Shown in pieces: positions 11,694 through 54,000 of a stretch of DNA of 64,000 nucleotides. The stretch comes from a phage, in the sequence record PZ445523.1; one strand, given 5' to 3'. A model generated the notes under the pieces. That model saw only the letters and a list, made by a program, of their open reading frames with translations, was not told where the DNA came from and did not search any database. Numbering within the stretch: position 1 is the first letter of the stretch; each line of letters starts with the position of its first letter. Made by a program: the position numbers and the translations under genes.

Positions 11694-12037
11694 TGAAAAG
11701 AGTCATGAGCATATCCGCTAGCGTCAATCATTTTAACTAAAGTTACCATTCCTCTGTTAACTGCTTGCGCGATTTCATCAAAAACTTCGTCACTATCATC
11801 GTAAAGATCATTAAAAAGTTCTAACACGTTCTTCTGAACTTTTAATTTACGGCCGACAATTTCGCCTACAGTAAATTCGTTTCCGCCAAATCCAGCGTAA
11901 AATGTAATTACACCCATTAACTGGCTTTCACGGGAATCTATGTCGTGTGATAAATTAATAAAAGCCGTCCCAGGCGCGGTTTTAAGTTGGCAACGAATTT
12001 TTACTTGGGTAATTCCAGTTATATGAATGTTAGACAT
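11678..12037 (-). CDS. hypothetical protein (frd.2 position)
   Basis: 119 aa ORF. Confidence 0.45.
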
Positions 12038-14827: not shown

Positions 14828-15481
14828 TCAATACTTGCAAGATTTCACAGTTTCAATGAAAACATTTTTAGCTTTCTGTGAATCAATATTTAAAATTTTT
14901 CTATAAGCCTTTAACTTTATAGAATAATTATTCCAGACTAAATTATCAGTCTGTTCATCATGTTTATCAATTATATTTAAAAATGAATCAAGCAAGATAA
15001 ACGTCTCAAACGAAATTATGTTCGATTGCAGAAGTTTAAAAATATAACTTGACTGAACCTTTGGATTATATTCAAAGATTTCTTTAAAAGCAGAAACTTC
15101 AACTTTTTTACTAAAATAGTAAATATTGCGAATATCTTCTTCAAACTTAAATTTAATTTGCTTCAAGCGTCCGATATATTCACGATAAAACACAAGTGCA
15201 TCAGCGTCAGAGATGTCGCCAATCCAAGCATCTTGGTTAGCAACCAAATTACTTATAAAGATTAAAGCAAGTTCCTTTAATTTATATTTTTCTGATAACT
15301 TCTGGAAAAAATACTTATCCCTTCGCTTTTGATAAGCGGCATCAGACACCCGCATGCACCAATTATACTTAATTACATCATACTTTCCATTCATATGTTG
15401 TTTTATCATTAAGTATAATTTATAAACTGATTTACCATCAATGTATCTTTCACCACCAGCAGGCATGCGGAGTTTAATCAT
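14828..15481 (-). CDS. 59: helicase loader gp59
   Basis: 217 aa, same length and N-terminus (MIKLRMPAGGERYIDG) as T4 gp59. Confidence 0.88.
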   Translation of the reverse strand: MIKLRMPAGGERYIDGKSVYKLYLMIKQHMNGKYDVIKYNWCMRVSDAAYQKRRDKYFFQKLSEKYKLKELALIFISNLVANQDAWIGDISDADALVFYREYIGRLKQIKFKFEEDIRNIYYFSKKVEVSAFKEIFEYNPKVQSSYIFKLLQSNIISFETFILLDSFLNIIDKHDEQTDNLVWNNYSIKLKAYRKILNIDSQKAKNVFIETVKSCKY

Positions 15482-15816
15482 AGTAGAAAATCTAATGTAT
15501 TAGTTTTTTCACAACGAACAACAGAAGGACGTAAAAGATTTTCGTCAATAGCTTCTGACTGAATTTTTTCAATTATACCCGAAGGAATAAATTTAGCAAA
15601 TTGAGTTTCAGGAATAGAGTTTTCTTCTAAGAATGCTGTCGTAGCTTCAAGATAACTCATTCCAAACTCTTCTACCATTTTTTCAATAATAAATCCATTT
15701 TCTTGACGATCAAGAAGCTTTGCTATTTCATCCTTTTCTTTCTTGATTGAAAGTTCTTTTTCTGAAAGACCGGTCTCATCGACCGGACGAATATCATTTA
15801 GAGAAAACTGTGTCAT
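15478..15816 (-). CDS. 33: late transcription co-activator gp33
   Basis: Start taken at MTQFSL (112 aa, T4 gp33 size); syntenic. Confidence 0.7.
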   Translation of the reverse strand: MTQFSLNDIRPVDETGLSEKELSIKKEKDEIAKLLDRQENGFIIEKMVEEFGMSYLEATTAFLEENSIPETQFAKFIPSGIIEKIQSEAIDENLLRPSVVRCEKTNTLDFLL

Positions 15817-16063
15817 AAAGTTCAACTACCTCTTCGGTTTCAGCTTCAAACACATCACGGTTATCTTTATGATACAAAGCTAATAGACGATTAAACATCT
15901 TACCATCAACGCCAAGTTCATCTTTGGCACGAATTCGAATATCTTTAATCAGTTCATTATAACCGGAAATTTTCAGTTTATGATCAGATGCTTCTTTAAT
16001 AAATTTAGCCAAGTCTTCGCCGTGGATAGCTTCATCAAATTCAACCATTTCTTTTTTAGCCAT
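15794..16063 (-). CDS. dsbA: dsDNA-binding protein DsbA
   Basis: 89 aa, same as T4 DsbA; overlaps start of gene 33. Confidence 0.75.
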   Translation of the reverse strand: MAKKEMVEFDEAIHGEDLAKFIKEASDHKLKISGYNELIKDIRIRAKDELGVDGKMFNRLLALYHKDNRDVFEAETEEVVELYDTVFSK

Positions 16064-16071
16064 TATTCACC

Positions 16072-16989
16072 TCAAAATTCATTAATGCTATTAGTTAATT
16101 TAGAAAGACCCGCTTTTACAAAATATGAATAAATTTTGCCACGCGGTGGTAATTTATATGAATTATAGTAATTCACAATGTTTGAAGCAATATTATCAGG
16201 AATATAATCAAAATCAATTAGAATTAAATTTTCTTTATAACGATTATATTCAGATTCGGTGAGAAGCACCTTAGCTTGCTCACGGTCATTAGCAATAGCT
16301 TCAACGATTGAAGTTTTCATTGAAGGAGTTCGTTCACCTTCAACTCTGGTAAACCAAAAGTCAGATCGTACTTTAACTGAAGCAACGTTATCCTTTTTGT
16401 CGCCTTTAAGGATTTTAGTCATACAGTCAATTTCAGCAGAACCGCTTTTAATTTTAACCCATTTCTTATGCATCGGAGACCATTGCTTAACATTTGGATA
16501 TTTGTGAAGCTGAGTAAAGTCACCATCAGATGAAATGATTAAAATCTTATGTCCTTCTAAGGAGAACTTTTTAACAAGAACAGCAATGTGGTCATCTGCT
16601 TCATACTTATCAATATCCATAACAATGTATGGCATATAAGCTTTCAATTCATCTATAACTTTATGGCTGGATTCAAAATAACCTTCCCAGTCCCAAGTAG
16701 ATTCTTCTCGTGCTTTTCCACGGTTTTTCTTGTAATAATAAGCGAAATCACGACGCCAGTATCCAGATTTCGCGTTATCAATACACAGCACAATTTTAGT
16801 GTATCCAAGCGTTTTTGCTTTTTTGACATTAAACTTAATTGAGTTCAATATCAAATGACGAACCATCGATAAATTAATTTTTTCTTTATCTGGGAAGTTT
16901 ACCAGAGCAGTTGAAAGAGCAATTTGACTAAAGTCAATTAAGCAAATTCCTTCTTTGTAGTCTTCATCCAGCATCATTTCTAAATCCAT
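16072..16989 (-). CDS. rnh: RNase H / 5'-3' exonuclease
   Basis: Start taken at MDLEMM (305 aa, T4 size; track ORF extends to 17004); FEN-family acidic motifs. Confidence 0.9.
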   Translation of the reverse strand: MDLEMMLDEDYKEGICLIDFSQIALSTALVNFPDKEKINLSMVRHLILNSIKFNVKKAKTLGYTKIVLCIDNAKSGYWRRDFAYYYKKNRGKAREESTWDWEGYFESSHKVIDELKAYMPYIVMDIDKYEADDHIAVLVKKFSLEGHKILIISSDGDFTQLHKYPNVKQWSPMHKKWVKIKSGSAEIDCMTKILKGDKKDNVASVKVRSDFWFTRVEGERTPSMKTSIVEAIANDREQAKVLLTESEYNRYKENLILIDFDYIPDNIASNIVNYYNSYKLPPRGKIYSYFVKAGLSKLTNSINEF

Positions 16990-17011
16990 ATGAACCTCGT
17001 TCAATTAGTGA

Positions 17012-17048
17012 GATTTCTATTATATACTATCTAAATCTTAAAGTAAAC
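17012..17048 (-). promoter_or_regulatory. sigma70-type phage early promoter for rnh
   Basis: Minus strand reads GTTTAC (17048-17043), 18 nt spacer, TATAAT (17024-17019), about 25 nt before rnh ATG. Confidence 0.6.
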
Positions 17049-17051
17049 AGG

Positions 17052-17059
17052 TATAAATA
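17052..17059 (+). promoter_or_regulatory. late promoter (TATAAATA) for gene 34
   Basis: Exact TATAAATA 35 nt upstream of gene 34 ATG. Confidence 0.75.
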
Positions 17060-17093
17060 CTTATTATTGAAAACACAATAGGAGCCCGGGAGA

Positions 17094-20000
17094 ATGGCCG
17101 AGATTAAAAGAAAGTTCAGAGCAGAAGATGGTCTGGACGCAGGTGGCGATAAAATAATCAACGTAGCTTTAGCTGATCGTACCGTAGGAACTGACGGTGT
17201 TAACGTTGATTACTTAATTCAAGAAAACACAGTTCAGCAATATGATCCAACTCGTGGATATTTAAAAGATTTTGTAATCATTTATAATAATCGTTTTTGG
17301 GCAGCAACGGATAATATTCCAAAACCTGCTGGAAATTTTAATAGAATTCGTTGGAAAGCATTACGTACTGATGCTGTATATACAACCGTATCATCTGGAC
17401 CATATCAATTAAAATCCGGAGAAGCAATTTCAGTAGATACATCAGTTGGCAATGACATTGAATTTACTTTACCACCTTCTCCGCTTGATGGAGAAACCGT
17501 AATAATTCAAGATATCGGTGGAAAACCTGGCATAAATCAGGTTAAAATAAATTCTTCAAATCAGAGTATTGTCAATTTTAGAGGTGAACAGGTACGTTCA
17601 GTTTTAATGACTCATCCAAAGTCACAGATGGTATTCATTTTTAATAACCGTTTGTGGCAAATGTATGTTGCTGATTATAGCAGAGAAGCTGCAATTGTTA
17701 CTCCATCGACTGCATATCAAGCACAATCTAACGATTTTATCGTACGTAGATTTACTTCTGCCGCACCGATTAATGTTAAGCTTCCAAGATTTGCCAATCA
17801 TGGAGATATCATTAATTTCGTTGATTTAGATAAATTAAATCCACTTTATCATACAATTGTTACGACATATGATGAAACAACGTCAGTGCAAGAAGTTGGA
17901 ACTCATTCCATTGAAGGCCGTACATCGATTGACGGTTTCTTGATGTTTGATGATAATGAGAAATTGTGGAGATTGTTTGACGGGGATAGTAAAGCACGTT
18001 TACGCATTATAACAACTAATTCTAATATTCGTCCAAATGAAGAAGTCATGGTATTTGGCGCGAATAATGGAACAACCCAAACAATTGAACTTCAGCTTCC
18101 GACTGATATTTCTGTTGGTGATACTGTTAAAATTTCCATGAATTACATGAGAAAAGGACAAACAGTTAAAATCAAAGCTGCCGGTGAAGATAAAATTGCT
18201 TCTTCAGTTCAATTGCTGCAATTCCCAAAACGCTCAGAATATCCGCCTGAAGCTGAATGGGTAACAGTTCAAGAATTAGTTTTTAACGGTGAAACTAATT
18301 ATGTTCCAGTTTTACAACTTGCTTATATAGAAGATTCTGATGGAAAATACTGGGTTGTACAGCAAAACGTTCCAACTGTAGAAAGAGTAGACTCTTTAAA
18401 TGCTTCTACTAGAGCAAGATTAGGCGTAATTGCTTTAGCTACGCAAGCTCAAGCAAATGCTGATTTAGAAAATTCTCCACAAAAAGAATTGGCAATTACT
18501 CCAGAAACGTTAGCTAATCGTACTGCTACAGAAACTCGCAGAGGTATTGCAAGAATAGCAACTACTGCTCAAGTGAATCAGAACACCACATTCTCTTTTG
18601 CAGATGACCTTATCATCACTCCTAAAAAGCTGAATGAAAGAACTGCTACAGAAACTCGTAGAGGTGTCGCTGAAATTGCTACGCAGCAGGAAACTAATAC
18701 AGGTACTGATGATACTACAATCATCACTCCTAAAAAGCTTCAAGCCCGTCAAGGTTCTGAATCATTATCTGGTATTGTAACTTTTGTATCTACCGCAGGT
18801 GCTACTCCAGCTTCTAGTCGTGAATTAAATGGTACGAATGTTTATAATAAAAACACTAATAATTTAGTTGTTTCACCTAAAGCTTTGGATCAGTATAAAG
18901 CTACTCCAACGCAACAAGGCGCAGTAATTTTAGCAGTTGAAAGTGAAGTAATTGCTGGACAAAGCCAAGAAGGATGGGCAAATGCGGTTGTAACGCCAGA
19001 AACGTTACATAAAAAGACATCAACTGATGGAAGAATTGGTTTAATTGAAATTGCTACGCAAAGTGAAGTTAATACAGGAACTGACTATACTCGTGCAGTC
19101 ACTCCTAAAACTTTAAATGACCGTAGAGCAACTGAAAGTTTAAGTGGTATAGCTGAAATTGCTACACAAGTTGAATTCGACGCAGGCGTCGACGATACTC
19201 GTATCTCTACACCATTAAAAATTAAAACCAGATTTAATAGTACTGATCGTACTTCTGTTGTTGCTCTATCTGGATTAGTTGAATCAGGAACTCTCTGGGA
19301 CCATTATACCCTTAATATTCTTGAAGCAAATGAGACACAGCGTGGTACACTTCGTGTAGCTACACAAGTTGAAGCTGCTGCAGGAACATTAGATAATGTT
19401 TTAATAACTCCTAAAAAGCTTTTAGGTACTAAATCTACTGAAGCGCAAGAAGGTGTTATTAAAGTTGCAACTCAGTCTGAAACTGTGACTGGAACGTCAA
19501 CAAATACTGCTGTATCTCCAAAAAATTTAAAATGGATTGTGCAGAGTGAACCTACTTGGGCAGCAACTACTGCGATAAGGGGCTTTGTTAAAACTTCTTC
19601 TGGTTCAATTACATTCGTTGGTAATGATACGGTAGGTTCAACACAGCCATTAGAATCATATGAGAAAAATGGTTATGCAGTATCACCATATGAATTAAAT
19701 CGCGTATTAGCAAATTACTTGCCATTAAAAGCAAAAGCTGTAGATAGTAATTTATTAGATGGTCTAGATTCGCTCCAGTTCATTCGTAGGGACATTGCAC
19801 AAACAGTTAATGGTTCACTAACCTTAACCCAACAAACGAATCTGAGTGCCCCTCTTGTATCATCTAGTACTGCTACATTCGGTGGGTCAGTTTCAGCAAA
19901 TAGTACATTAACTATTTCTAATACTGGAACAGCAACTCGATTGATTTTTGAGAAAGGACCTCAAACTGGAACAAACCCGGCTCAAACGATGACTGTCAGA

Positions 20001-20963
20001 GTGTGGGGAAATCAATTTAGTGGGGAATCAGACACAACACGTTCTACCGTATTTGAAGTTAGTGATGAAACGTCTAGTCATTTTTATTCTCAGCGTAATA
20101 AAGCTGGAAATATAACATTTAATATCAACGGTACAGTAACACCGATAAATGTTAATGCTTCAGGAACATTGAATGCAAATGGTGTAGCAACATTTGGTAA
20201 TTCAGTCACTGCAACTGGTGAAATTATTTCTCGAAGCGCAAATGCTTTCCGTGCTATTAACGGAAATTATGGTTTCATTGTTCGCAATGATGGGTCAGTA
20301 ACGAATTTTATGCTTACTGCATCGGGTGATCAAACCGGCGGATTTAATGGATTGCGTCCTTTAGCTATTAATAATGCATCTGGCCAAGTAACGATTGGTG
20401 AAAGCTTAATCATTGCAAAAGGTGCTACTATAAGTTCAGGCGGTTTAACTGTTAACTCGAGAATTCGTTCTCAAGGTGTTAAAACATCTGATTTATATAC
20501 CCGTGCGCCAACATCTGATACAGTAGGATTCTGGTCAATTGATATTAACGATTCAGCCACTTATAATCAATTCCCTGGTTATTTTAAAATGGTTGAAAAA
20601 ACTAATGAAGTGACTGGACTTCCATATTTAGAACGCGGTGAAGAAGTTAAATCTCCTGGTACATTGACTCAGTTTGGTAACACGCTTGATTCGCTTTATC
20701 AAGATTGGATTACTTATCCAACGACCCCAGAAGCACGTACCACTCGCTGGACGCGTACATGGCAGAAAACTAAAAATTCTTGGTCAAGTTTTGTTCAGGT
20801 ATTCGATGGAGGTAACCCTCCTCAACCTTCGGATATAGGAGCAATCCCATCTGATAATGGAATAATAGGTAATCTTACTATTCGTGATTTCTTACGAATT
20901 GGTAATGTTCGCATTATTCCTGACCCAGTGAATAAAACTGTTAAATTTGAATGGGTTGAATAA
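17094..20963 (+). CDS. 34: long tail fibre proximal subunit gp34
   Basis: 1289 aa, same length as T4 gp34; TATAAATA late promoter upstream; internal repeat module. Confidence 0.95.
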   Translation: MAEIKRKFRAEDGLDAGGDKIINVALADRTVGTDGVNVDYLIQENTVQQYDPTRGYLKDFVIIYNNRFWAATDNIPKPAGNFNRIRWKALRTDAVYTTVSSGPYQLKSGEAISVDTSVGNDIEFTLPPSPLDGETVIIQDIGGKPGINQVKINSSNQSIVNFRGEQVRSVLMTHPKSQMVFIFNNRLWQMYVADYSREAAIVTPSTAYQAQSNDFIVRRFTSAAPINVKLPRFANHGDIINFVDLDKLNPLYHTIVTTYDETTSVQEVGTHSIEGRTSIDGFLMFDDNEKLWRLFDGDSKARLRIITTNSNIRPNEEVMVFGANNGTTQTIELQLPTDISVGDTVKISMNYMRKGQTVKIKAAGEDKIASSVQLLQFPKRSEYPPEAEWVTVQELVFNGETNYVPVLQLAYIEDSDGKYWVVQQNVPTVERVDSLNASTRARLGVIALATQAQANADLENSPQKELAITPETLANRTATETRRGIARIATTAQVNQNTTFSFADDLIITPKKLNERTATETRRGVAEIATQQETNTGTDDTTIITPKKLQARQGSESLSGIVTFVSTAGATPASSRELNGTNVYNKNTNNLVVSPKALDQYKATPTQQGAVILAVESEVIAGQSQEGWANAVVTPETLHKKTSTDGRIGLIEIATQSEVNTGTDYTRAVTPKTLNDRRATESLSGIAEIATQVEFDAGVDDTRISTPLKIKTRFNSTDRTSVVALSGLVESGTLWDHYTLNILEANETQRGTLRVATQVEAAAGTLDNVLITPKKLLGTKSTEAQEGVIKVATQSETVTGTSTNTAVSPKNLKWIVQSEPTWAATTAIRGFVKTSSGSITFVGNDTVGSTQPLESYEKNGYAVSPYELNRVLANYLPLKAKAVDSNLLDGLDSLQFIRRDIAQTVNGSLTLTQQTNLSAPLVSSSTATFGGSVSANSTLTISNTGTATRLIFEKGPQTGTNPAQTMTVRVWGNQFSGESDTTRSTVFEVSDETSSHFYSQRNKAGNITFNINGTVTPINVNASGTLNANGVATFGNSVTATGEIISRSANAFRAINGNYGFIVRNDGSVTNFMLTASGDQTGGFNGLRPLAINNASGQVTIGESLIIAKGATISSGGLTVNSRIRSQGVKTSDLYTRAPTSDTVGFWSIDINDSATYNQFPGYFKMVEKTNEVTGLPYLERGEEVKSPGTLTQFGNTLDSLYQDWITYPTTPEARTTRWTRTWQKTKNSWSSFVQVFDGGNPPQPSDIGAIPSDNGIIGNLTIRDFLRIGNVRIIPDPVNKTVKFEWVE
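18410..19550 (+). repeat. tandem protein-coding repeats within gene 34
   Basis: Recurring TPxxL..R.ATE(T/S)..G.xxIAT(Q)..E.N.G segments, at least six copies. Confidence 0.6.
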
Positions 20964-27260: not shown

Positions 27261-27533
27261 TTATTTGTTCGTATACATCTCTAGATATCGATATACACCC
27301 TCAAAACCCTCGTTGAATTCGTCGATGAGGGTTTTCTTATCTTCTTGAGTTAATTCAGAAACAATTTTACGGAATGAATTCTGATTTAACTTTCTACCTT
27401 CATGCGTTACTCCAATCTCATTCAGAAATGCAATAAAATTAGCACGATTTTCAACAATATCTTCTCTGGAAAATTTAATCAAAATAGATGCAACAGTAAT
27501 AATTTCACGAACTGTATCAATGTTTTTATTCAT
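27261..27533 (-). CDS. asiA: anti-sigma70 factor AsiA
   Basis: 90 aa; sequence MNKNIDTVREIITVASILIKFSRED matches T4 AsiA. Confidence 0.93.
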   Translation of the reverse strand: MNKNIDTVREIITVASILIKFSREDIVENRANFIAFLNEIGVTHEGRKLNQNSFRKIVSELTQEDKKTLIDEFNEGFEGVYRYLEMYTNK

Positions 27534-29352: not shown

Positions 29353-29988
29353 TCACAGTTCAGATGCTACAGTGATTACAGCTTCAATGTTTTCTGCCGA
29401 GCGTTTAATGTCAAGATACACATTACCGTTTTTAGCGATTTTACATGACATTCCGATGTCAGTAAATTTCTGAATATGATGTTCCATCATTTTGTATCCA
29501 AAAATTCGCATATTTCCATTGTTGTTAATTTCAAAATTACGAATTCCGTGAGTACGTTTTTCTAAAATAGCGAGATAGTTACTACGATAAGTTTCAACCT
29601 TTTTAAGAACAAATCCATTTTCATCTAAAAGTTTTAACATGAAGTCTTTATCTTCTTCCATATCGGAAGTAATTTCGCGAGCTTTACGAGTTGCTCGTTT
29701 TTTCAGCAGTTCCGGAGCATTTTCTTGTGCGTATAAAGTTGCTGCATTTGAAATAATATCCTGAGCTTCGCCTGTAATGATTAATCCATCACCAGATTTC
29801 TCTACCAGGCCTTTTTTAATCAATACCCCAATATTACTATTAACTACTGCGTTACCTAAATCTGGATGCACCTCACGAACTTCTGCAGCTGTAATGAAAT
29901 CTTTCTTAGCAATAGTAATTAAAATCGCAGCAGTTTTTTCATTCAGAACATCGTTAGAAGCTTTGATGATGTAAGTTACTTTAGACAT
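29353..29988 (-). CDS. motA: middle-transcription activator MotA
   Basis: 211 aa; sequence MSKVTYIIKASNDVLNEKTAAILITIAKKDF matches T4 MotA. Confidence 0.93.
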   Translation of the reverse strand: MSKVTYIIKASNDVLNEKTAAILITIAKKDFITAAEVREVHPDLGNAVVNSNIGVLIKKGLVEKSGDGLIITGEAQDIISNAATLYAQENAPELLKKRATRKAREITSDMEEDKDFMLKLLDENGFVLKKVETYRSNYLAILEKRTHGIRNFEINNNGNMRIFGYKMMEHHIQKFTDIGMSCKIAKNGNVYLDIKRSAENIEAVITVASEL

Positions 29989-44818: not shown

Positions 44819-46138
44819 TCACACATAAAATACGTCATAACGACCACGGGTAACACCAACATAAAGAAGTTGTTGAGCCAATTCAGCATCTGCATAATGA
44901 ATACAAGGCGTATAAATGAAAGCACGGTCTACAGACATACCTTGCGCTTTATGGAATGTTGATGCAGGAAGTGCTTTCACTTTACTAAACTGTGATTTAG
45001 CATCCCAAAAATCACTCCATGGAGCTTTTCCGCCTTTATTCCAATTTTTATAAGTTTCTGCTGTTTTACCTAAAAATAGGTTAAACTTATATAATTCTTC
45101 ATCAGATGAAATTATTTTAATCTTTTCACGATAATATTCATCATCGCCGTAAGTTTCTACTGTTAAATCCCAATGACGAATTAAGTATTCTCCATGAACA
45201 CCACGAGCTTTAACAAACGTTGATGTATACTCTGCTTCTATAATACGAACTAATTGTCCGTTATTAAAAATAATTTCTGACACAGGCTTTCCATCAATTT
45301 TATATGTTTTAATTAATGGTTCCTGCATTACAATAATTTCACCGACAATAAAATCTTTATCAGTTTCAAAAATCTTTTTACGAATAATGCTATTTAACTT
45401 GTCAACAGATTTATTCGTAAATGCCATTACGCGATTTTCAAACAAATCATCTAGTGATTTTACGATTGAAAAATAATTTACCATAAAATCTCGTAAAGCG
45501 GTATCACCAGTAAATCCACGTACTCCATGCCCGTCAACAATTTTATCATAAATCCACTTACCGTTACGAACGTCAGTAGCTACATCAATAATAGGAGCAT
45601 TACTGCGTTTAACTTCAGTGAGTTCACACTGATAAAAATCTTTATGTGTAAAGAATGGACTGATATAAGCAGTATTTTCTCCTGGGTCAACAGGTCTAAT
45701 TTGCTTATTATCACCTATTCCAATTATAGTACACCACGGCGGAATAGTTGAAAGCAGAATTTTAAATAGCTTTCTATCATACATTGACACTTCGTCGCAG
45801 ATTAATACCCTGCATTTAGCTAAATCTGGTACTTCCTTCTGCTCAAAGAGGACATTTTCTTCATATGTTACTGGGTTAATTTTAAGAATACTATGAATAG
45901 TACTCGCTTCTTTCCCTGATAGTTTTGAAAGAATCTTTTTAGCCGCATGCGTAGGAGCTGCTAAAATAATACCAGTTTCACCCGTAGATATTAGAGCTTC
46001 AATGATGAATTTAGTAAGAGTAGTCTTACCGGTACCAGCAGGTCCATTAATAGTTACATGATGTTTCTTTTCTTTAATAGCCTTCATAACAATGTTAAAG
46101 GCATTTTTCTGGCCTTCGGTCAAATCATCAAATGTCAT
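44819..46138 (-). CDS. dda: Dda DNA helicase (SF1)
   Basis: 439 aa, same as T4 Dda; Walker A GPAGTGKTT. Confidence 0.93.
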   Translation of the reverse strand: MTFDDLTEGQKNAFNIVMKAIKEKKHHVTINGPAGTGKTTLTKFIIEALISTGETGIILAAPTHAAKKILSKLSGKEASTIHSILKINPVTYEENVLFEQKEVPDLAKCRVLICDEVSMYDRKLFKILLSTIPPWCTIIGIGDNKQIRPVDPGENTAYISPFFTHKDFYQCELTEVKRSNAPIIDVATDVRNGKWIYDKIVDGHGVRGFTGDTALRDFMVNYFSIVKSLDDLFENRVMAFTNKSVDKLNSIIRKKIFETDKDFIVGEIIVMQEPLIKTYKIDGKPVSEIIFNNGQLVRIIEAEYTSTFVKARGVHGEYLIRHWDLTVETYGDDEYYREKIKIISSDEELYKFNLFLGKTAETYKNWNKGGKAPWSDFWDAKSQFSKVKALPASTFHKAQGMSVDRAFIYTPCIHYADAELAQQLLYVGVTRGRYDVFYV

Positions 46139-46446
46139 CGTAAATTCCCTGCAATTGGTATACTAACAATACGCCCAGTATCTAAAATTCGCCGATATAG
46201 TCTTTGTGTGTCTACATCAGGCTTAACATGTTTAACTTCTATTTTATTAAACCAAAATTTACGTGGAGTCTCAACTAATCTTGGAATTCCCTTACCTAAA
46301 GCTAGTCGATACTGCTCTTTAAGAGTAGTAAATACTTTATCAGCAATCTTCCATTCAAAAAATACAGCAGGACGATGTTCATCAAGCGGAACTGGCGCTA
46401 TAAATCCGTCTTTGTCTCGGTAAACTATCGCATATACATAAACCAT
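46135..46446 (-). CDS. hypothetical protein (dda.1 position)
   Basis: 103 aa ORF. Confidence 0.45.
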   Translation of the reverse strand: MVYVYAIVYRDKDGFIAPVPLDEHRPAVFFEWKIADKVFTTLKEQYRLALGKGIPRLVETPRKFWFNKIEVKHVKPDVDTQRLYRRILDTGRIVSIPIAGNLR

Positions 46447-46447
46447 A

Positions 46448-47194
46448 TTATCCTCGGATAAGTTTAAAAATTGAACAATTTAGCGGATATCCTCTTTTCA
46501 GTTTAAGTTTATCAATAAAAGACAAGTTTTGATACCGCTCTACACCTTGAATAATTTTATCACACATATCATATTGCATTTCTGCTTCTGACAACTTTTT
46601 CACAATTTTCCAATCCGAGCCTTTAAGAAGAACGTTCAATTTAACAACTTCAGCGCCTTCTGCTATGCGAGAACCATCAATACGAGCTTTAAGTGCTATA
46701 ATTCTTAGCTTAATGTCAGAGGTCTGTTTTGATTTAGAAAGCTGAGAAATGTGTTCAATTCGGTTTTCACGTTTTTTCTGTATAGCTTTAATTTGATTAT
46801 AAGTCTTTTTGATTTTAGCCCATTTCTTTTCATCTAAATTTAGTTTATGAACTTTTTTCGCAGATGAACGACCAATTCGCAAAGCAAATAAATCACGCTT
46901 TTCAATCAACTCTTCTAAAGTATAATCAGAACGAAATGTATTATACTTTTTCTTTACTGCAATAACATTCCCTTTAATGTATCCAACGTTATTATCAAAA
47001 CGTTCTAATGATAATTTCTCTCCTTCAATACGATTATCAAAAGGTTCTCCCGAGTAAGCACAAACTTTTTGATCTAAAATGTTCTTAATGTAATTGAAGT
47101 CTAAGTTAAAATCTTTAGAACGTCTTTTTGCAGATGCCTGAGTATGCTCTAGACGACGTTTAATTTTACGAATTTGGTTATTAGACAGTTTCAT
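46448..47194 (-). CDS. Srd-like basic protein
   Basis: 248 aa, very basic; position and size like T4 srd; contains C-x-Y-S-G ... SLERFDNNVGY segment. Confidence 0.5.
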   Translation of the reverse strand: MKLSNNQIRKIKRRLEHTQASAKRRSKDFNLDFNYIKNILDQKVCAYSGEPFDNRIEGEKLSLERFDNNVGYIKGNVIAVKKKYNTFRSDYTLEELIEKRDLFALRIGRSSAKKVHKLNLDEKKWAKIKKTYNQIKAIQKKRENRIEHISQLSKSKQTSDIKLRIIALKARIDGSRIAEGAEVVKLNVLLKGSDWKIVKKLSEAEMQYDMCDKIIQGVERYQNLSFIDKLKLKRGYPLNCSIFKLIRG

Positions 47195-47227
47195 ATTTTT
47201 CTCACATCTTACGGACGGTTAACTACT

Positions 47228-47260
47228 TATACTATAACATTTTTACTTTAACTTGTAAAC
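47228..47260 (-). promoter_or_regulatory. phage early promoter upstream of srd-like gene
   Basis: Minus strand GTTTAC (47260-47255), 18 nt, TGTTATAGT extended -10. Confidence 0.55.
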
Positions 47261-47273
47261 AACTTTATGTAAA

Positions 47274-47300
47274 AATGCTTTAAAACTTTCATGGTATAAT
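47274..47300 (+). promoter_or_regulatory. MotA-type middle promoter on the plus strand (antisense to modA)
   Basis: AATGCTTTA (47274-47282), exactly 12 nt, TGGTATAAT (47292-47300) read on the plus strand. Confidence 0.5.
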
Positions 47301-47317
47301 GAATCTAAGTCCTTCCA

Positions 47318-47920
47318 TTATAGATTAAATCCTTCAAAATCAAGAGTATAGATAGTGTATGTTGAATACTTTTTGTACTCATATCTATCTGCAATTCTAA
47401 ATACACTTCCAGCCGGTATCATTACTTCTTGTTCATCTGAAACTAATTCCATATTACGATAACGATGGCTATCCGGAAACTTAAAGTTTGGATTGTATTC
47501 TTTACAGCGTAGAGCTTTTATAGCATACTCCTGGAAATTGAATACCATAGGAGCTTTGAATTCAAAAATAACTTGTGTGTTATACTCTAAACCGGAAGCA
47601 AAATGTAGAGCTATATTTTTATCATATGAAGCTGATACTACTTTATCAAATGTAATAATATCAATTCCTTGATTTAATACTTGTTTAGTCTCAGCTGGAA
47701 CACCTCTCCAAAGAGGTTTATCGTTTGGAACCAAACGAGATTTGATTATTTCATTTAACCAAGTATGGTCATCTGGTTTATTAGTAATACAATGAATTAA
47801 AAGTTCAATTTCAGATAAATTAAACCCTTCAGAAAGTAATTCTTCACGAATAGAAGCACGCACCGATGCATCCATTGATTTTATTTTAAAATCTTTTAGT
47901 TGCATTACTGAGTATTTCAT
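47318..47920 (-). CDS. modA: ADP-ribosyltransferase ModA
   Basis: 200 aa; R (LWRG), S-x-S (SAS) and E-x-E (EQE) ART motifs. Confidence 0.8.
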   Translation of the reverse strand: MKYSVMQLKDFKIKSMDASVRASIREELLSEGFNLSEIELLIHCITNKPDDHTWLNEIIKSRLVPNDKPLWRGVPAETKQVLNQGIDIITFDKVVSASYDKNIALHFASGLEYNTQVIFEFKAPMVFNFQEYAIKALRCKEYNPNFKFPDSHRYRNMELVSDEQEVMIPAGSVFRIADRYEYKKYSTYTIYTLDFEGFNL

Positions 47921-48540
47921 TCAACTACCTCAATATCATAAACTTTAAATGTTCCAAATGAATCGTGTAATTTTTCTTTTGAAATAGAAGTTATTCTATA
48001 CTTTCCAATTGGAATCATCCATTCTTGTTCACGCACAATCATCATTAAGTTATCAGTACGCTCTGAATCTAGTCCATCAGTATCTTCATACGTGTACTTA
48101 AACTCAGTATTAGGAGAAGAAAGTATAATATCGCTGATATGGTCAGAATAATTAAAAGCTTTATCAGTTTTTAAACGAAGTATTATTTTAGTAAAATATT
48201 CAGCATAAGAAAAAGAACATGCTGTGAGCAAACTAGTAGTAAATGAATCTACTCTGTTCGTTGAAAACACTTCTCCAACTTGTAAATCTTTAATAAGTTC
48301 TTTTGTCGATTTTGATATACCACGATATAACTGATATGGTGATTTAGTTAAATGCTTTTTAACGATTTTATTCAACTGCCGATGAAGAGCTTCATTCTTT
48401 TTGGCTTCCATACATTGCCAAAGAATTGACTGCTCAAAGTCAGTAAATTTTTCACAGACCTTTTTATACATATCATATTGAAAATCAACGCTTTCAGCTT
48501 TTATAGATAACTGTTCAACATCTGCAAGATTAATAATCAT
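47917..48540 (-). CDS. modB: ADP-ribosyltransferase ModB
   Basis: 207 aa paralogue of modA with R (LYRG) and EQE motifs. Confidence 0.8.
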   Translation of the reverse strand: MIINLADVEQLSIKAESVDFQYDMYKKVCEKFTDFEQSILWQCMEAKKNEALHRQLNKIVKKHLTKSPYQLYRGISKSTKELIKDLQVGEVFSTNRVDSFTTSLLTACSFSYAEYFTKIILRLKTDKAFNYSDHISDIILSSPNTEFKYTYEDTDGLDSERTDNLMMIVREQEWMIPIGKYRITSISKEKLHDSFGTFKVYDIEVVE

Positions 48541-48607
48541 GATAGCCTCCGTATACTTCAGAAGCTATCATATCATCGTTAGAAAGGAAAGTAAACAACT
48601 TTTTGAA

Positions 48608-49616: not shown

Positions 49617-50088
49617 TTATTTTACCTAAAACAATAGTAGGAGCATCGTCAAATTTATGAATTTTTAGCAAATTTGGATTTAAATTATTCCATAAAGAGG
49701 TAATAAAATATGATAGCGCACTTTCGTCCGTAATTATAAATTTATTTCCTTTATCTATTTTCCAATCATATATTGAATCATATGAATAGAAGGATAACGG
49801 TTTATTATTATAATATGCTTCAGCAACATCAATATAGTTAGATTTAGTAAATGCTTGAATTGCCATAAATGGAGAATTTTGTACAGTTTCAATAATTCCG
49901 ATCTTTTTAAGTTTTATTTCAACATCTTCTGGAATTGGCATTGAAATAAAATCTTCTACTAGATACATGTTATTGTCATATCTTTTATCAATCATTACTG
50001 CTACGGTAATTGGAACATCCTTGACAAACGCCATACTAATACTATTGATAGACATTTCAAACAAAATTGCTTCCATAATTTTCCTCAA
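49591..50088 (-). CDS. hypothetical protein (T4 mrh/srh region)
   Basis: 165 aa ORF. Confidence 0.45.
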
Positions 50089-50417
50089 TCACAAGATGTA
50101 GATGAACAACTAGAATCACAAGAACTTCCACATGAATCACCTGCCCATACATGAACAGGAACATTAGTGTCATATGAATCAGAACTAGATTGTGCATTAG
50201 ATGATGTAGTAGGTGTTGACCAGCGCCAAGGATTTTTATAATATTCTTGGGCTTCTTCATAAGTCATAGTGACTGCTTCTACTGTTCCATCTCCCATATA
50301 AACATATTCAACTACAGTTAAAGGAAGGTAATCGTTTGAAATAGGAACTACACCTTCTCCAGGAGTCGTAGAGAAAAAATCCGTAAAGAAACTTTTAAAC
50401 CAATTAAAGATAAACAT
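50085..50417 (-). CDS. hypothetical protein with Ser/Cys-rich C-terminal tail
   Basis: 110 aa; C-terminus [18 protein letters not shown]. Confidence 0.45.
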
Positions 50418-50623
50418 TACAAAAAGCCTCTCTTAAATTCGACTTGTTTATCGCCATAATCATATCGAATCTCTGCATTAAATTCGACAGAGCCATCTGC
50501 GTACATCATAAATGAATGCACAACAACTTCTGTAGACCATGGTTGTAGTTCATATTTCTTCATTACGTGTCGTGAAATGATAATATCTAAATCTTCATTT
50601 GGTTTAATCCAACGATTTAACAT
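50417..50623 (-). CDS. hypothetical protein
   Basis: 68 aa ORF; promoter plus hairpin 50640-50708 upstream. Confidence 0.45.
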   Translation of the reverse strand: MLNRWIKPNEDLDIIISRHVMKKYELQPWSTEVVVHSFMMYADGSVEFNAEIRYDYGDKQVEFKRGFL

Positions 50624-50685
50624 AGTGCTCTCCTCTATAAGATAATTCTATTATACCATACTCATTTTGGAAAGTAAACCATTTA

Positions 50686-50708
50686 AATGAAAAAGGACTC
50701 CCGAAGGA
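50686..50708 (-). other. intercistronic UUCG hairpin
   Basis: AAGGACTCC-CGAA-GGAGTCCTT. Confidence 0.45.
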
Positions 50709-50718
50709 GTCCTTAAAT

Positions 50719-50964
50719 TTATTCACCAGTTACTTTCCACAAATCTTCATTTGCAGCAATCCATGCAGCACGTTGATTTTCTTCATATACTGTAGAATAT
50801 GCTGCTTTTTCTGAAGGGAATGTCTGGTAATGAGCACCAGAAATTTTGTGAACGTCAGAATAAAGAGGGAAAGCTACGGAAATTTCCTTTCCTTCAATTT
50901 TCTTATTTCCATCTAATTTCTGCTCAAATGTTTTGATATTAACATAACCGCGAGTACTAGCCAT
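50719..50964 (-). CDS. soc: small outer capsid protein
   Basis: 81 aa; MASTRGYVNIKTFEQKLDGNKK matches T4 Soc; minus-strand TATAAATA late promoter at 50995-51002. Confidence 0.88.
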   Translation of the reverse strand: MASTRGYVNIKTFEQKLDGNKKIEGKEISVAFPLYSDVHKISGAHYQTFPSEKAAYSTVYEENQRAAWIAANEDLWKVTGE

Positions 50965-50980
50965 GTAATTCTCCTTTTAT

Positions 50981-51190
50981 TTAAATTACATGATTATTTA
51001 TAATAAATTCTCGCGGAACGTTAAAATACCCAATTTTAGTTAATATAACAACATCGCCGTTAATAATTACCGGAGAATAATCGGCTGGAGCATTAAATTT
51101 CCAATGGGCTCTAATATTATATCCATCAGAACCAAATGCTCGACTAGCCGGTCTCCCGGCTTTTTGCCATGCATAAAAATCAAATTTCAT
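50981..51190 (-). CDS. hypothetical protein (soc.1 position)
   Basis: 69 aa ORF. Confidence 0.45.
   Translation of the reverse strand: MKFDFYAWQKAGRPASRAFGSDGYNIRAHWKFNAPADYSPVIINGDVVILTKIGYFNVPREFIINNHVI
50995..51002 (-). promoter_or_regulatory. late promoter (TATAAATA) for soc
   Basis: Plus strand TATTTATA = minus TATAAATA, about 30 nt upstream of soc ATG. Confidence 0.65.
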
Positions 51191-51390
51191 TTTGAATGCT
51201 CTATAATTAATTTTAAGGCTTCTTCACGCACCAACTTGTCTAATGGTATATGCCCAGTTTTAATTATGTAAGCTTTGTGGAGCTGATTAGATAAGAGCTC
51301 ACATACGAGCTCCTTGTCATAATCTTTAAATAGCTGGTCAATACGTTTCTTGCGGGCTTTCTTGAGCTGGCGTTTATTTAAACGAGCCAT
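51187..51390 (-). CDS. hypothetical protein (soc.2 position)
   Basis: 67 aa basic ORF. Confidence 0.45.
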   Translation of the reverse strand: MARLNKRQLKKARKKRIDQLFKDYDKELVCELLSNQLHKAYIIKTGHIPLDKLVREEALKLIIEHSK

Positions 51391-51908
51391 TAATAACCTC
51401 GGTCTTGACGAGCGAAATTTTCAGCATTTTTCAGATAATAAAGTTTAAAGATTTCTTCAGCTGACATTCCAAGAGCAATAAATTTATTCATGAAAAAGTG
51501 AAATTGGTCAATCAGTTCAAATTTAATTTCAAGCTGATCTTCGGGAGATAAATCTTGAATTTTCTTGGATTGCATTTCAGAATAACGTTTCTTCCAAGGT
51601 TTCCATACAGCAGAAGCTTCTTTTTCACCATTACTCATACCACCAAGAGAAGTATATAGCTCGCGAGTTTCGTCTGCGATATAATCGTCTTGGTTTCGCA
51701 GCCAAGCAAGAACTTCTCCTGCGGTTTCAAGTGAATCAGGATGACGATTTGTTTCTGGCTTATCATTAGCCAAACGAATCTGTAAAGACCGCTGCATATC
51801 AAGCATAACCTGCAATGGGTCTTTTTCATCACCGAGAATATCCCAGTATTCATTTTGAGCTTTATCAACACCTTCGATCAAATGAGCACATTCATTAAAG
51901 TGAGCCAT
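51390..51908 (-). CDS. 56: dCTPase/dUTPase gp56
   Basis: Start taken at MAHFNECAHL (172 aa, T4 gp56 is 171) with AAAGGAAAAATAATG RBS; track ORF N-terminal extension lacks RBS. Confidence 0.88.
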   Translation of the reverse strand: MAHFNECAHLIEGVDKAQNEYWDILGDEKDPLQVMLDMQRSLQIRLANDKPETNRHPDSLETAGEVLAWLRNQDDYIADETRELYTSLGGMSNGEKEASAVWKPWKKRYSEMQSKKIQDLSPEDQLEIKFELIDQFHFFMNKFIALGMSAEEIFKLYYLKNAENFARQDRGY

Positions 51909-51979
51909 TATTTTTCCTTTCAATTCATGGGTTAGTAGATTAATTATACAATAAATATATAAAGCAATAAGGAGGACAT

Positions 51980-52180
51980 ATGGTACAAAAATTAATGGCA
52001 CTTGTTGATGCCATAAAAGGTAATAAGAAACGTATAGCTTTTACTATTTCTGCTATGGTAGGAATTTTACTCTGGAACTTTATTTTATCACCTGTTGCAA
52101 TTGCTCATGATGTTAATATTCCAGTAGTTACTCTTGATACATTCGTAGATTTAGCATTTGCTTTAGTTGGGTTAATTTAA
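51980..52180 (+). CDS. small membrane protein on opposite strand, at the position of T4 gene 69/dam
   Basis: 66 aa ORF with TAAGGAGG 4 nt before ATG; TM segment; no overlap with other coding except 3 nt of gene 61 stop. Confidence 0.45.
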   Translation: MVQKLMALVDAIKGNKKRIAFTISAMVGILLWNFILSPVAIAHDVNIPVVTLDTFVDLAFALVGLI

Positions 52181-53205
52181 ATCTTAGCATATTTAGATAG
52201 TCGCATTTTAGCCATCAACCCCTGGGCAATATTATTTTTCATATATTCCATAATTTGTTCAGTGGTTGCACCTTCCTTTCTAATCATATCATTAACATCT
52301 TTTGATTTCCAGGGAGATTTATCCCAAAACATAACCCTTTCTCCTGCATCAACTAATTTAGTCATTCGCTTAATAGTGTCAGGATGACGAGGTTCATTAT
52401 CTAAAACCCACACACGTCTATCTTTAAATGGAACAACTTCTAGGTCTAATTGACCACCCGTAATAGCTATACCATTTTCAATAAAAAGTGAATCTATAGG
52501 TCCTTCTAGAACATATACATCACCATCTTTAACTCGTTCGACTCCATAGATTTTTGTTGCCTCAGGATAAGCTTTGATGGTGATATATTTTTGAGGAGCA
52601 TCTTTCTTTAATGCACGTCCTTGAAACGACTCAGCTTTTCCATTAGCATTATAAATTGGAATAACAAGACGAGGCTCAGAAATTTCCTTTTTGTATGTTC
52701 CCGGTGCTATACTATTAACTAATTTAGGCCATTCGGTTGTAAACCAAAGATATTTCCATTTATCCTTTGGAATACAACGAGCTTTTACATATTTTATAAT
52801 TGGATGGTCTTCCGCCAGTTTATCTAATCTAACACATGACGGAAGAGATTTAATTATTTTCTTCTCAGGTTGTTTAGGAAGTTCTTTAGGTTTTTCTACT
52901 GGACGACTTTTACCTTTTTCTTTTCTTATTTCAAAGATATACTCACGATATAAATCAGGTTCAAACTCCTTTAAATATATTCCGATTGGTGCATGATAGT
53001 TACAGTTATAACAATGAATATTTCCTTCATTATTATCACCATAATACCATCCACGGGCTTTATTTTGGTCGGTTTTTGAATCTCCACACACTGGGCATCT
53101 AAACCGTAATTTAAAAGTTGAACTATTATTTACTTGTGTGAATTTAGGTAAATGAGCTAATGCACGGTATGCAAACTCATTATCAATCCAAGGTATTGAT
53201 GACAT
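52177..53205 (-). CDS. 61: DNA primase gp61
   Basis: 342 aa, same as T4 gp61; N-terminal zinc ribbon CPVCGDSK ... CYNCNYH. Confidence 0.93.
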   Translation of the reverse strand: MSSIPWIDNEFAYRALAHLPKFTQVNNSSTFKLRFRCPVCGDSKTDQNKARGWYYGDNNEGNIHCYNCNYHAPIGIYLKEFEPDLYREYIFEIRKEKGKSRPVEKPKELPKQPEKKIIKSLPSCVRLDKLAEDHPIIKYVKARCIPKDKWKYLWFTTEWPKLVNSIAPGTYKKEISEPRLVIPIYNANGKAESFQGRALKKDAPQKYITIKAYPEATKIYGVERVKDGDVYVLEGPIDSLFIENGIAITGGQLDLEVVPFKDRRVWVLDNEPRHPDTIKRMTKLVDAGERVMFWDKSPWKSKDVNDMIRKEGATTEQIMEYMKNNIAQGLMAKMRLSKYAKI

Positions 53206-53373: not shown

Positions 53374-54000
53374 TTAACCTCTATTCATAAAAGCATTAAA
53401 AATTTGGTCATCAATAGAAACATTTACTTTAGACTGTTTTTCAGATGGCAATTCATAACCACATATTACAATTTTATGATCAATATCAAAATACACAGAA
53501 GCAATATGATTAATGATATTTTCAGTGAAGTCTAAATCAACATCAATGTCTTTTTGACCAAAGCCCAAAGGATAAATAATGCGAGTAATTCGATTATCTT
53601 TAACAAAGATTCCACCGACATACTCTGTGCTGCGTTTAAAGTCTACACGCCGACGAAATGAAAAATATTCAGACTCTTTATGAGCTCGGCTTATAGGGCA
53701 CAACGAATAACTAGAATAAGAGATGTCAAATCCTACGCCTTCAATATGAACTAAATTGTCATGATTAAACCAATTATAATCATATGCCAAGTCCATTAGA
53801 TTGTCATATGTGAAAGGCACCGGATTAACATCATTGGTCACAAGCATATAATTAGCAACTGCTATAATTTCATTATTTTTAACGAATACAAACCGTGATT
53901 GATGCGAATGACCTGGACCTGTGTTTTCACGATTAATGATATAACACTGGGCACCTTTATATTTGTACGTGTCTTTACACTTGTGCATTTGATAAAGCAT
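53374..54000 (-). CDS. hypothetical protein (61.2 position)
   Basis: 208 aa ORF. Confidence 0.5.
   Translation of the reverse strand: MLYQMHKCKDTYKYKGAQCYIINRENTGPGHSHQSRFVFVKNNEIIAVANYMLVTNDVNPVPFTYDNLMDLAYDYNWFNHDNLVHIEGVGFDISYSSYSLCPISRAHKESEYFSFRRRVDFKRSTEYVGGIFVKDNRITRIIYPLGFGQKDIDVDLDFTENIINHIASVYFDIDHKIVICGYELPSEKQSKVNVSIDDQIFNAFMNRG

Follow-up and report, generated by a model that had tools for sequence, protein, structure and literature searches.

The window, that is, the whole stretch of 64,000 nt analysed here (sequence record PZ445523.1), came from a Tequatrovirus whose locus shared 98.4% identity with T4 and 99.1% identity with phage vB-Eco-KMB40. Between modA and srd was a gap of 123 bp, in which a promoter-type sequence was located on the plus strand, opposite to both genes. 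The features concerned are listed below by their positions in the window; dda, dda.1, srd, modA and modB are ORFs matching the T4 annotation.

27261–27533, minus strand: asiA, encoding the co-activator that remodels sigma-70 (Pfam AsiA, E = 1e-42)
29353–29988, minus strand: motA, encoding the activator that reads the MotA box (Pfam MotA_activ, E = 5e-61; MotCF, E = 9e-67)
44819–46138, minus strand: dda
46135–46446, minus strand: dda.1
46448–47194, minus strand: srd, the gene downstream of the intergenic region
47231–47259, minus strand: srd early promoter, TTTACA-17-TATAGT with TG, seen in the sequence and annotated as a promoter in phage Lutter
47273–47282, plus strand: MotA box AAATGCTTTA, fitting the consensus (a/t)(a/t)(a/t)TGCTT(t/c)A (PMC2988021)
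47283–47294, plus strand: 12-bp spacer between box and -10 hexamer, including the extended -10 TG (47292–47293), from the sequence
47295–47300, plus strand: sigma-70 -10 hexamer TATAAT, from the sequence, invariant in all genera examined
47301–47312, plus strand: discriminator GAATCT, predicted start A47307 (T4 11897) and AAGTCC, by likeness to the T4 uvsY/oriF promoter
47307–47920, plus strand: putative antisense non-coding transcript across modA, which may reach modB, from the orientation of the promoter
47318–47920, minus strand: modA, encoding an ADP-ribosyltransferase of the RNA polymerase alpha subunit
47917–48540, minus strand: modB, encoding an ADP-ribosyltransferase, the upstream gene of the same early operon

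An earlier reading of this DNA from its sequence only had placed a near-perfect MotA box with an extended -10 at 47274–47300 on the plus strand, and these coordinates were found to be right: the plus strand had AATGCTTTA at 47274–47282, TGGTATAAT at 47292–47300 and TATAAT at 47295–47300. Its gap of 12 nt was correct when measured from the box to the TATAAT hexamer, but not as a distance to TGGTATAAT, which begins only 9 nt past the box. Its description of the surrounding genes as all minus-strand was borne out for ORFs of at least 150 aa between 28555 and 63138, the exception being two overlapping spurious ORFs, and the back-to-back arrangement that it described with the srd early promoter (47259–47231) was also present. 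The T4 counterpart of the element was identical base for base, with its plus-strand box at 11866–11872, -10 hexamer at 11885–11890 and predicted start at 11897.

Two further sequences were observed on the minus strand beside the element. A second -35/-10 pair, TTTACA-17-TAAAGT (47245–47273), overlapped the srd early promoter from 14 bp upstream, its -35 hexamer abutting the antisense promoter at its MotA box. Within the 5′ leader of srd (47205–47218, CCGTCCGTAAGATG), a short element, CGTCCGTAAGA(T/C)G, was seen shortly before the ribosome-binding site of this gene. The element, in which a 4-bp stem and a loop of 5 nt are possible, was kept in Tequatro-, Dhaka-, Gapriver- and Mosigvirus, and in Jiaodavirus it lay inside the spacer of the antisense promoter.

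In middle promoters, the MotA box is separated by 12 ± 1 bp from TAtaaT (PMC2988021). In the element, AAATGCTTTA occupied the position of the box, which is expected to be centred near -30, and was followed after 12 bp by TATAAT with TGn, the TG being at -15/-14; this distance was 12–13 bp in other Tevenvirinae genera. A match to the -35 hexamer TTGACA was found at 1 of 6 positions here and at 1–4 of 6 in other genera, the box taking the place of this hexamer. About half of the versions of the element carried TGn, which is the proportion reported for middle promoters in general (PMC2988021). Both factors required were encoded in the window (motA and asiA), and MotA homologues were found in 1144 phage records, whose distribution over host genera paralleled that of Srd. 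The strict pattern TGCTTTA-N11-13-TATAAT occurred twice in the 64-kb window versus 0.03 expected from shuffles, the second match being located on the sense strand, ahead of the gene 56 region, and a loose pattern occurred 10 times versus 4.4 expected. In addition, GCTTT-N13-14-TATAAT appeared in 0.03–0.1% of shuffles of each mod-srd intergenic region. The site is not a product of chance.

Alignment with other T-even genomes, proposed in the earlier reading as a check, showed that the motif is kept in close relatives and also across genera. Within Tequatrovirus, 17 sequences were compared (11 GenBank phages and 6 IMG/VR contigs), in which the box, the TG and the -10 hexamer were unchanged except for one T-to-C substitution (TGCTTCA) that is still within the consensus, while spacer positions 47286 (C or A) and 47291 (A or G) varied. 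The mod-srd intergenic region was the most variable part of the locus in this genus, with indels and substitutions in the srd leader and the early-promoter spacer. Outside Tequatrovirus, the Mod proteins were about 25–36% identical, and an antisense GCTTT-N13/14-TATAAT was found between mod and srd in every MotA-encoding genus examined. It occupied the same strand and place in 11 Tevenvirinae genera, 12–45 bp after the mod stop codon as measured from the end of the -10 hexamer. These included Dhakavirus (QL01, MX01 and NC-G), Gaprivervirus (VR26), Mosigvirus (WFK and RB69), Kanagawavirus (Entb_45), Jiaodavirus (PKO111 and Mineola), Karamvirus (PS49), Gelderlandvirus (STML-198), Tegunavirus (fHe-Yen9-01) and a Slopekvirus-like contig. 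Lazarusvirus had a version with a 14-bp spacer, and further IMG/VR genomes also carried the element. In each locus of about 3.5 kb, it was the sole such match on the antisense strand. A scan of IMG/VR with the 15-nt TATAATGAATCTAAG was too unspecific to be of use, yielding more than 120 matches, mostly by chance.

A similar element with a 14-bp spacer was present in Acinetobacter phage Abraxas of the Twarogvirinae, where the upstream genes were a small ORF and a macro-domain gene instead of mod, a point against antisense regulation of mod. Just upstream of the antisense promoter of Abraxas (L034, about 1040–1061) was a palindrome, TGTAAAGCACGCGTGCTTTACA, consisting of two MotA-box-like sequences back to back, for which a divergent promoter pair or a hairpin is possible.

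The element resembled the T4 uvsY promoter (PuvsY, which is also ori(uvsY) or oriF), with a mapped start at T4 115371 (PMC2988021, Table 1). Both have a TGCTT(t/c)A box 12–13 bp from a TATAAT with TGn, and 21 bp were identical, from TGGTATAAT to +6 (run TGGTATAATGAATCTAAGTCC), comprising the -10 hexamer, the discriminator and the start, followed by xTCCAxTA. The T4 uvsY promoter, ...AATGCTTCACGTTAAAACGTGGTATAATGAATCTAAGTCCATCCAATAAC, and the element, ...AAATGCTTTAAAACTTTCATGGTATAATGAATCTAAGTCCTTCCATTATAG, were thus similar past the 21-bp identity too. Since the mapped uvsY start is the A after GAATCT, the start of the antisense transcript was predicted at A47307. The two differ in that PuvsY serves a gene, uvsY, of the main coding strand and has also been mapped as an origin, whereas the element has no ORF behind it and faces the local genes. 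Near-identity to the uvsY promoter was confined to the T4 group. When ten genomes were compared, a common downstream consensus of about GGTTCT / AGGTCCTT was seen in the uvsY and mod-antisense promoters, with 8.6–8.8 of 16 positions identical; co-variation of the two start regions within genomes was unsupported (p = 0.39, 10 genomes).

The earlier proposal of a MotA-type middle promoter directed antisense into modA is therefore strongly supported by the sequence, by the deep conservation of the exact promoter elements and by a core nearly that of the mapped uvsY promoter. In our view, the element is very probably functional as a MotA/AsiA-dependent promoter, placed on the strand that carries none of the surrounding genes.

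Besides the element, the window had a single strong antisense match of the MotA type, P34i (ori(34) or oriG), TGCTTCAAGAATATTAAGGGTATAAT, at 19328–19303 on the minus strand, inside gene 34 (17094–20963, plus strand), and the T4 record annotates P34i as oriG, with the primer RNA opposite to gene 34. Like the element, P34i is a MotA-type promoter directed against opposite-strand genes and giving a non-coding RNA; it is, however, located within a late structural gene and has been proven to act as a replication origin, whereas the element is at a gene 3′-end in an early operon, with no origin mapped. These relationships underlie the main rival to antisense regulation of mod, namely a promoter of the origin type. 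As at oriF and oriG, a MotA-dependent transcript would persist there in an R-loop, either priming leading-strand synthesis or opening the duplex so that replication dependent on recombination can begin; the antisense orientation would be incidental. Such an origin is unlikely, although the core identical to the oriF promoter, the oriG annotation of P34i and the orphan state of the promoter are all in its favour. Replication from oriA is also said to use a nearby MotA-dependent promoter (PMC3016281), and the toxicity of modA (PMC2988021) may have kept the fragment out of classical plasmid origin screens. On the other hand, whole-genome arrays found oriA, C, E, F and G only (PMC3016281), and oriA was rejected as the identity of the site, being annotated at T4 16763 in the minus-strand direction, 4.9 kb away. 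A fork from the element would, moreover, meet the main direction of transcription head-on. A DUE-like AT-rich tract downstream was unsupported in any genus when compared with the background (AT content from +1 to +100, 0.72 versus 0.68 here and not raised in six other genera), by a measure that also fails to pick ori(34).

The start-region motif shared with the uvsY promoter was rejected as a mark of origins, because an ordinary sense promoter of the nrdC region had it too; a looser form was present in P34i. Its occurrence in the nrdC-region promoter and at other sites indicates that it marks a subclass of middle promoters and not origins as such. A subclass with the start region TATAAT-GGTTCT-AG(G/A)(T/C)CC(T)T was observed in IMG/VR contigs L043, L054, L063, L075, L076 and L087. 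Gapriverviruses had 4–5 copies per genome of GCTTT-N13/14-TATAATGGTTCT, versus about 1.5e-4 expected by an estimate from base composition. The copies included the uvsY promoter, the nrdC-region sense promoter and orphans in antisense orientation, found at the gp2-like/gp3-like and gp18-like/gp19-like gene junctions; these gene identities were assigned by eye, on the basis of ORF size and sequence. A perfect 10-bp inverted repeat, CCGTAGAACC/GGTTCTACGG, bracketed the 18/19 copy.

The position of the element relative to its two neighbours bears on whether it serves the mod operon, as antisense regulation implies, or srd. The srd early promoter shifted between genera, being back to back with the element, face to face with it or not evident. 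In five genera, the two were back to back, the box preceding the srd -35 by 8–20 bp; in Karam- and Gelderlandvirus, they were face to face with nearly coincident starts; and in Jiaoda- and Tegunavirus, the element was embedded in the srd leader, 15–18 bp from the ATG. Each of these arrangements would suit an action on srd at the DNA level, in which the early promoter of srd, or the UP-element region of that promoter, is occluded by bound polymerase or MotA, or read-through into srd is blocked, so that srd is off at middle times. From what is known of sigma region 1.2 and the discriminator, TATAATGG is expected to favour long-lived open complexes, which would also suit such an action. This explanation is nevertheless improbable, as the geometry toward srd varies in this way, and in the Slopekvirus-like contig, an inserted small ORF placed srd about 260 bp away from the element, which remained about 28 bp past the stop codon of the Mod homologue. 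Given the constant position at the mod stop codon and the variable relation to srd, the conserved partner of the element is the mod 3′-end rather than srd. In PS49 (L025) and STML-198 (L032), the srd early promoter, GTTTAC-17-TAGAAT, overlapped the mod stop codon and faced the antisense promoter, with predicted starts within a few bases of each other, a convergent and mutually exclusive layout unlike the back-to-back layout of T4.

In the table of mapped T4 middle promoters (58 entries; PMC2988021), Pdda.1 (11138) is followed directly by P56/69 (16813), and the site is absent; this may mean no more than that nobody looked on this strand. No feature was found at the site in T4 GenBank records NC_000866, AF158101, MT984581 and the original M30001, and the annotation of phage Lutter gave minus-strand promoters only at this place. 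The element is thus absent from the T4 promoter catalogue and the GenBank records although T4 is the reference system for phage transcription. In the open-access literature, no paper joining MotA-dependent with antisense was found for T4; a recent T4 dRNA-seq preprint gives 22 antisense start sites (bioRxiv 10.1101/2024.04.04.588121). In Additional file 4 of Nolan et al. 2006, an HMM prediction for RB69, Pm:12081, is placed on the plus strand with the remark "1 bp ins" and a low score of 7.9 (PMC1524935). This was found to be the orthologous site between RB69 srd and modA, including the 1-bp longer spacer; the prediction stands in that supplementary table as a coordinate, the entry carrying no remark on orientation, conservation or function (PMC1524935).

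The absence from the mapped-promoter list would agree with a silent look-alike, that is, a sequence conserved for a sense-strand reason, such as the mod mRNA 3′-end or the region upstream of srd, and merely resembling a promoter. Some good consensus matches are reportedly silent in T4, a finding ascribed to Stoskiene et al. in 2007. Such a look-alike is, however, hard to square with the conservation pattern, and we regard it as quite improbable. In a multiple alignment of 10 sequences from 7 genera, the invariant columns were GCTTT, TATAATG and two others, that is, exactly the MotA-box core and the -10 region, and the GCTTT core was invariant in additional genera beyond the alignment too. The spacer had no invariant column, the 13–14 bp between GCTTT and TATAATG being unrelated in sequence across genera and constrained in length. 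Read on the sense strand, CATTATA-N13-AAAGC matched no known signal, the small sense ORF across the site was without an ATG in several phages, and no shared RNA structure was observed. A Krischvirus locus, which has srd and no mod gene and served as a negative control, had no element; its group, that of RB49, is without MotA (PMC1524935).

Downstream of the promoter, short plus-strand ORFs such as that at 47355–47462 (35 aa, GTG start) could be taken for an unrecognised small protein, but this is very improbable, since none had a Shine-Dalgarno sequence, as the earlier reading had stated, and none was conserved in position or sequence in seven genera. The same reading had offered a relic of a lost plus-strand gene as a possible origin of the element; this was rejected, because all MotA-encoding genera examined have kept the element, and none of its copies has an ORF behind it. 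The product in question for antisense regulation of mod would thus be a non-coding RNA. The opposite-strand promoter directly abuts its target, the predicted start A47307 preceding the modA stop codon by 11 nt. There was no sign of a discrete RNA having a defined 3′-end, since no intrinsic terminator was conserved across genera and only weak hairpins, at +395 and +414, were seen in this phage. Neither unusual folding of the first 150 nt (z = 0.32) nor a consensus RNA structure across genera was detected, and the downstream RNA had no match in Rfam. A defined small RNA was therefore rejected for want of a conserved terminator, structure or Rfam match. Rho might terminate an untranslated antisense RNA early.

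ModA is highly toxic, and the way in which T4 ends early gene expression has been stated to be unknown (PMC2988021); a brake applied by the activator of the middle genes would therefore be the most economical function of the element. From about 2–3 min after infection, MotA would bring the AsiA-remodelled sigma-70 RNA polymerase to the box at 47273–47282, and the polymerase would open TATAAT at 47295–47300 and start at A47307. The non-coding RNA would be made back through modA, and perhaps modB, by transcription running head-on against the early transcription of modB, modA and srd in that order. Most likely, the toxic ADP-ribosyltransferase operon would thereby be shut off or insulated at a set time, and read-through from the mod operon into srd-dda would be cut as well; the route may be polymerase collision (transcriptional interference), pairing of sense and antisense RNAs, or both. 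Antisense regulation of the ADP-ribosyltransferase genes would fit best as a function in that the promoter stays with the mod 3′-end even in the Slopekvirus-like contig, and this conserved place fits a brake on the mod operon. A timed antisense brake on the Mod enzymes is also suggested by conservation in all MotA-encoding genera that were compared. What is inferred here is that the promoter fires in vivo, how far its RNA extends and that mod expression is lowered. Taken as a whole, the statement that the element is a MotA/AsiA-dependent promoter, that it gives a non-coding antisense RNA and that mod is repressed is tentative, standing nearly as good a chance of being right as of being wrong.

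A related arrangement is known in lambda, where OOP RNA is a cis-antisense RNA opposite to cII, at the 3′-end of a phage regulatory gene. In both cases, a promoter just past the stop codon fires back, or would fire back, into the gene, and down-regulation is expected by pairing or by transcriptional interference. OOP RNA is, however, short, ended by a terminator and made by unmodified host polymerase, whereas the element has no conserved terminator and initiation would be gated and timed by the phage's own activator. It is possible, though it may well prove wrong, that the element is a deeply conserved, MotA-timed antisense switch that silences the mod operon by convergent transcription and might be the founding case of a small group of orphan middle promoters in antisense orientation; in the Gapriverviruses, similar ones were observed between late genes 18/19 and 2/3. 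If true, it would provide a first concrete mechanism by which an early T4 operon is turned off and would explain how mod expression is limited to the opening minutes of infection. Interest in the toxic enzymes ModA and ModB has been renewed, and the hypothesis is testable by point mutation in non-coding DNA. If the site were instead a cryptic oriF-like R-loop site, it would matter for T4 replication; brake or origin, the element deserves annotation in T4-like genomes.

Other observations concerned modB and the region upstream of the mod operon. At the modB start (48538–48572, minus strand), an inverted repeat with a 14-bp stem covered the Shine-Dalgarno sequence and the ATG, and its 5′ arm overlapped the -10 of the modB early promoter (48595–48567). 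The modB start could thus be sequestered in read-through RNA from upstream, whereas the RNA of the proximal promoter lacks the 5′ arm. As a terminator of the antisense RNA, this hairpin was rejected, because no T-run follows it on the plus strand. In comparison with T4 15000–18000, no ORF of at least 150 aa was found at 50088–51390 in the window; a gene 56-like ORF (51390–52001) was followed, after 176 bp, by a primase ORF (52177–53205). From this layout of ORFs around 50088–53205, dam and segF of T4 seem to be missing at these positions in this phage. The ORF at 53374–54000 encoded a homologue of AdfA (anti-DarT factor).
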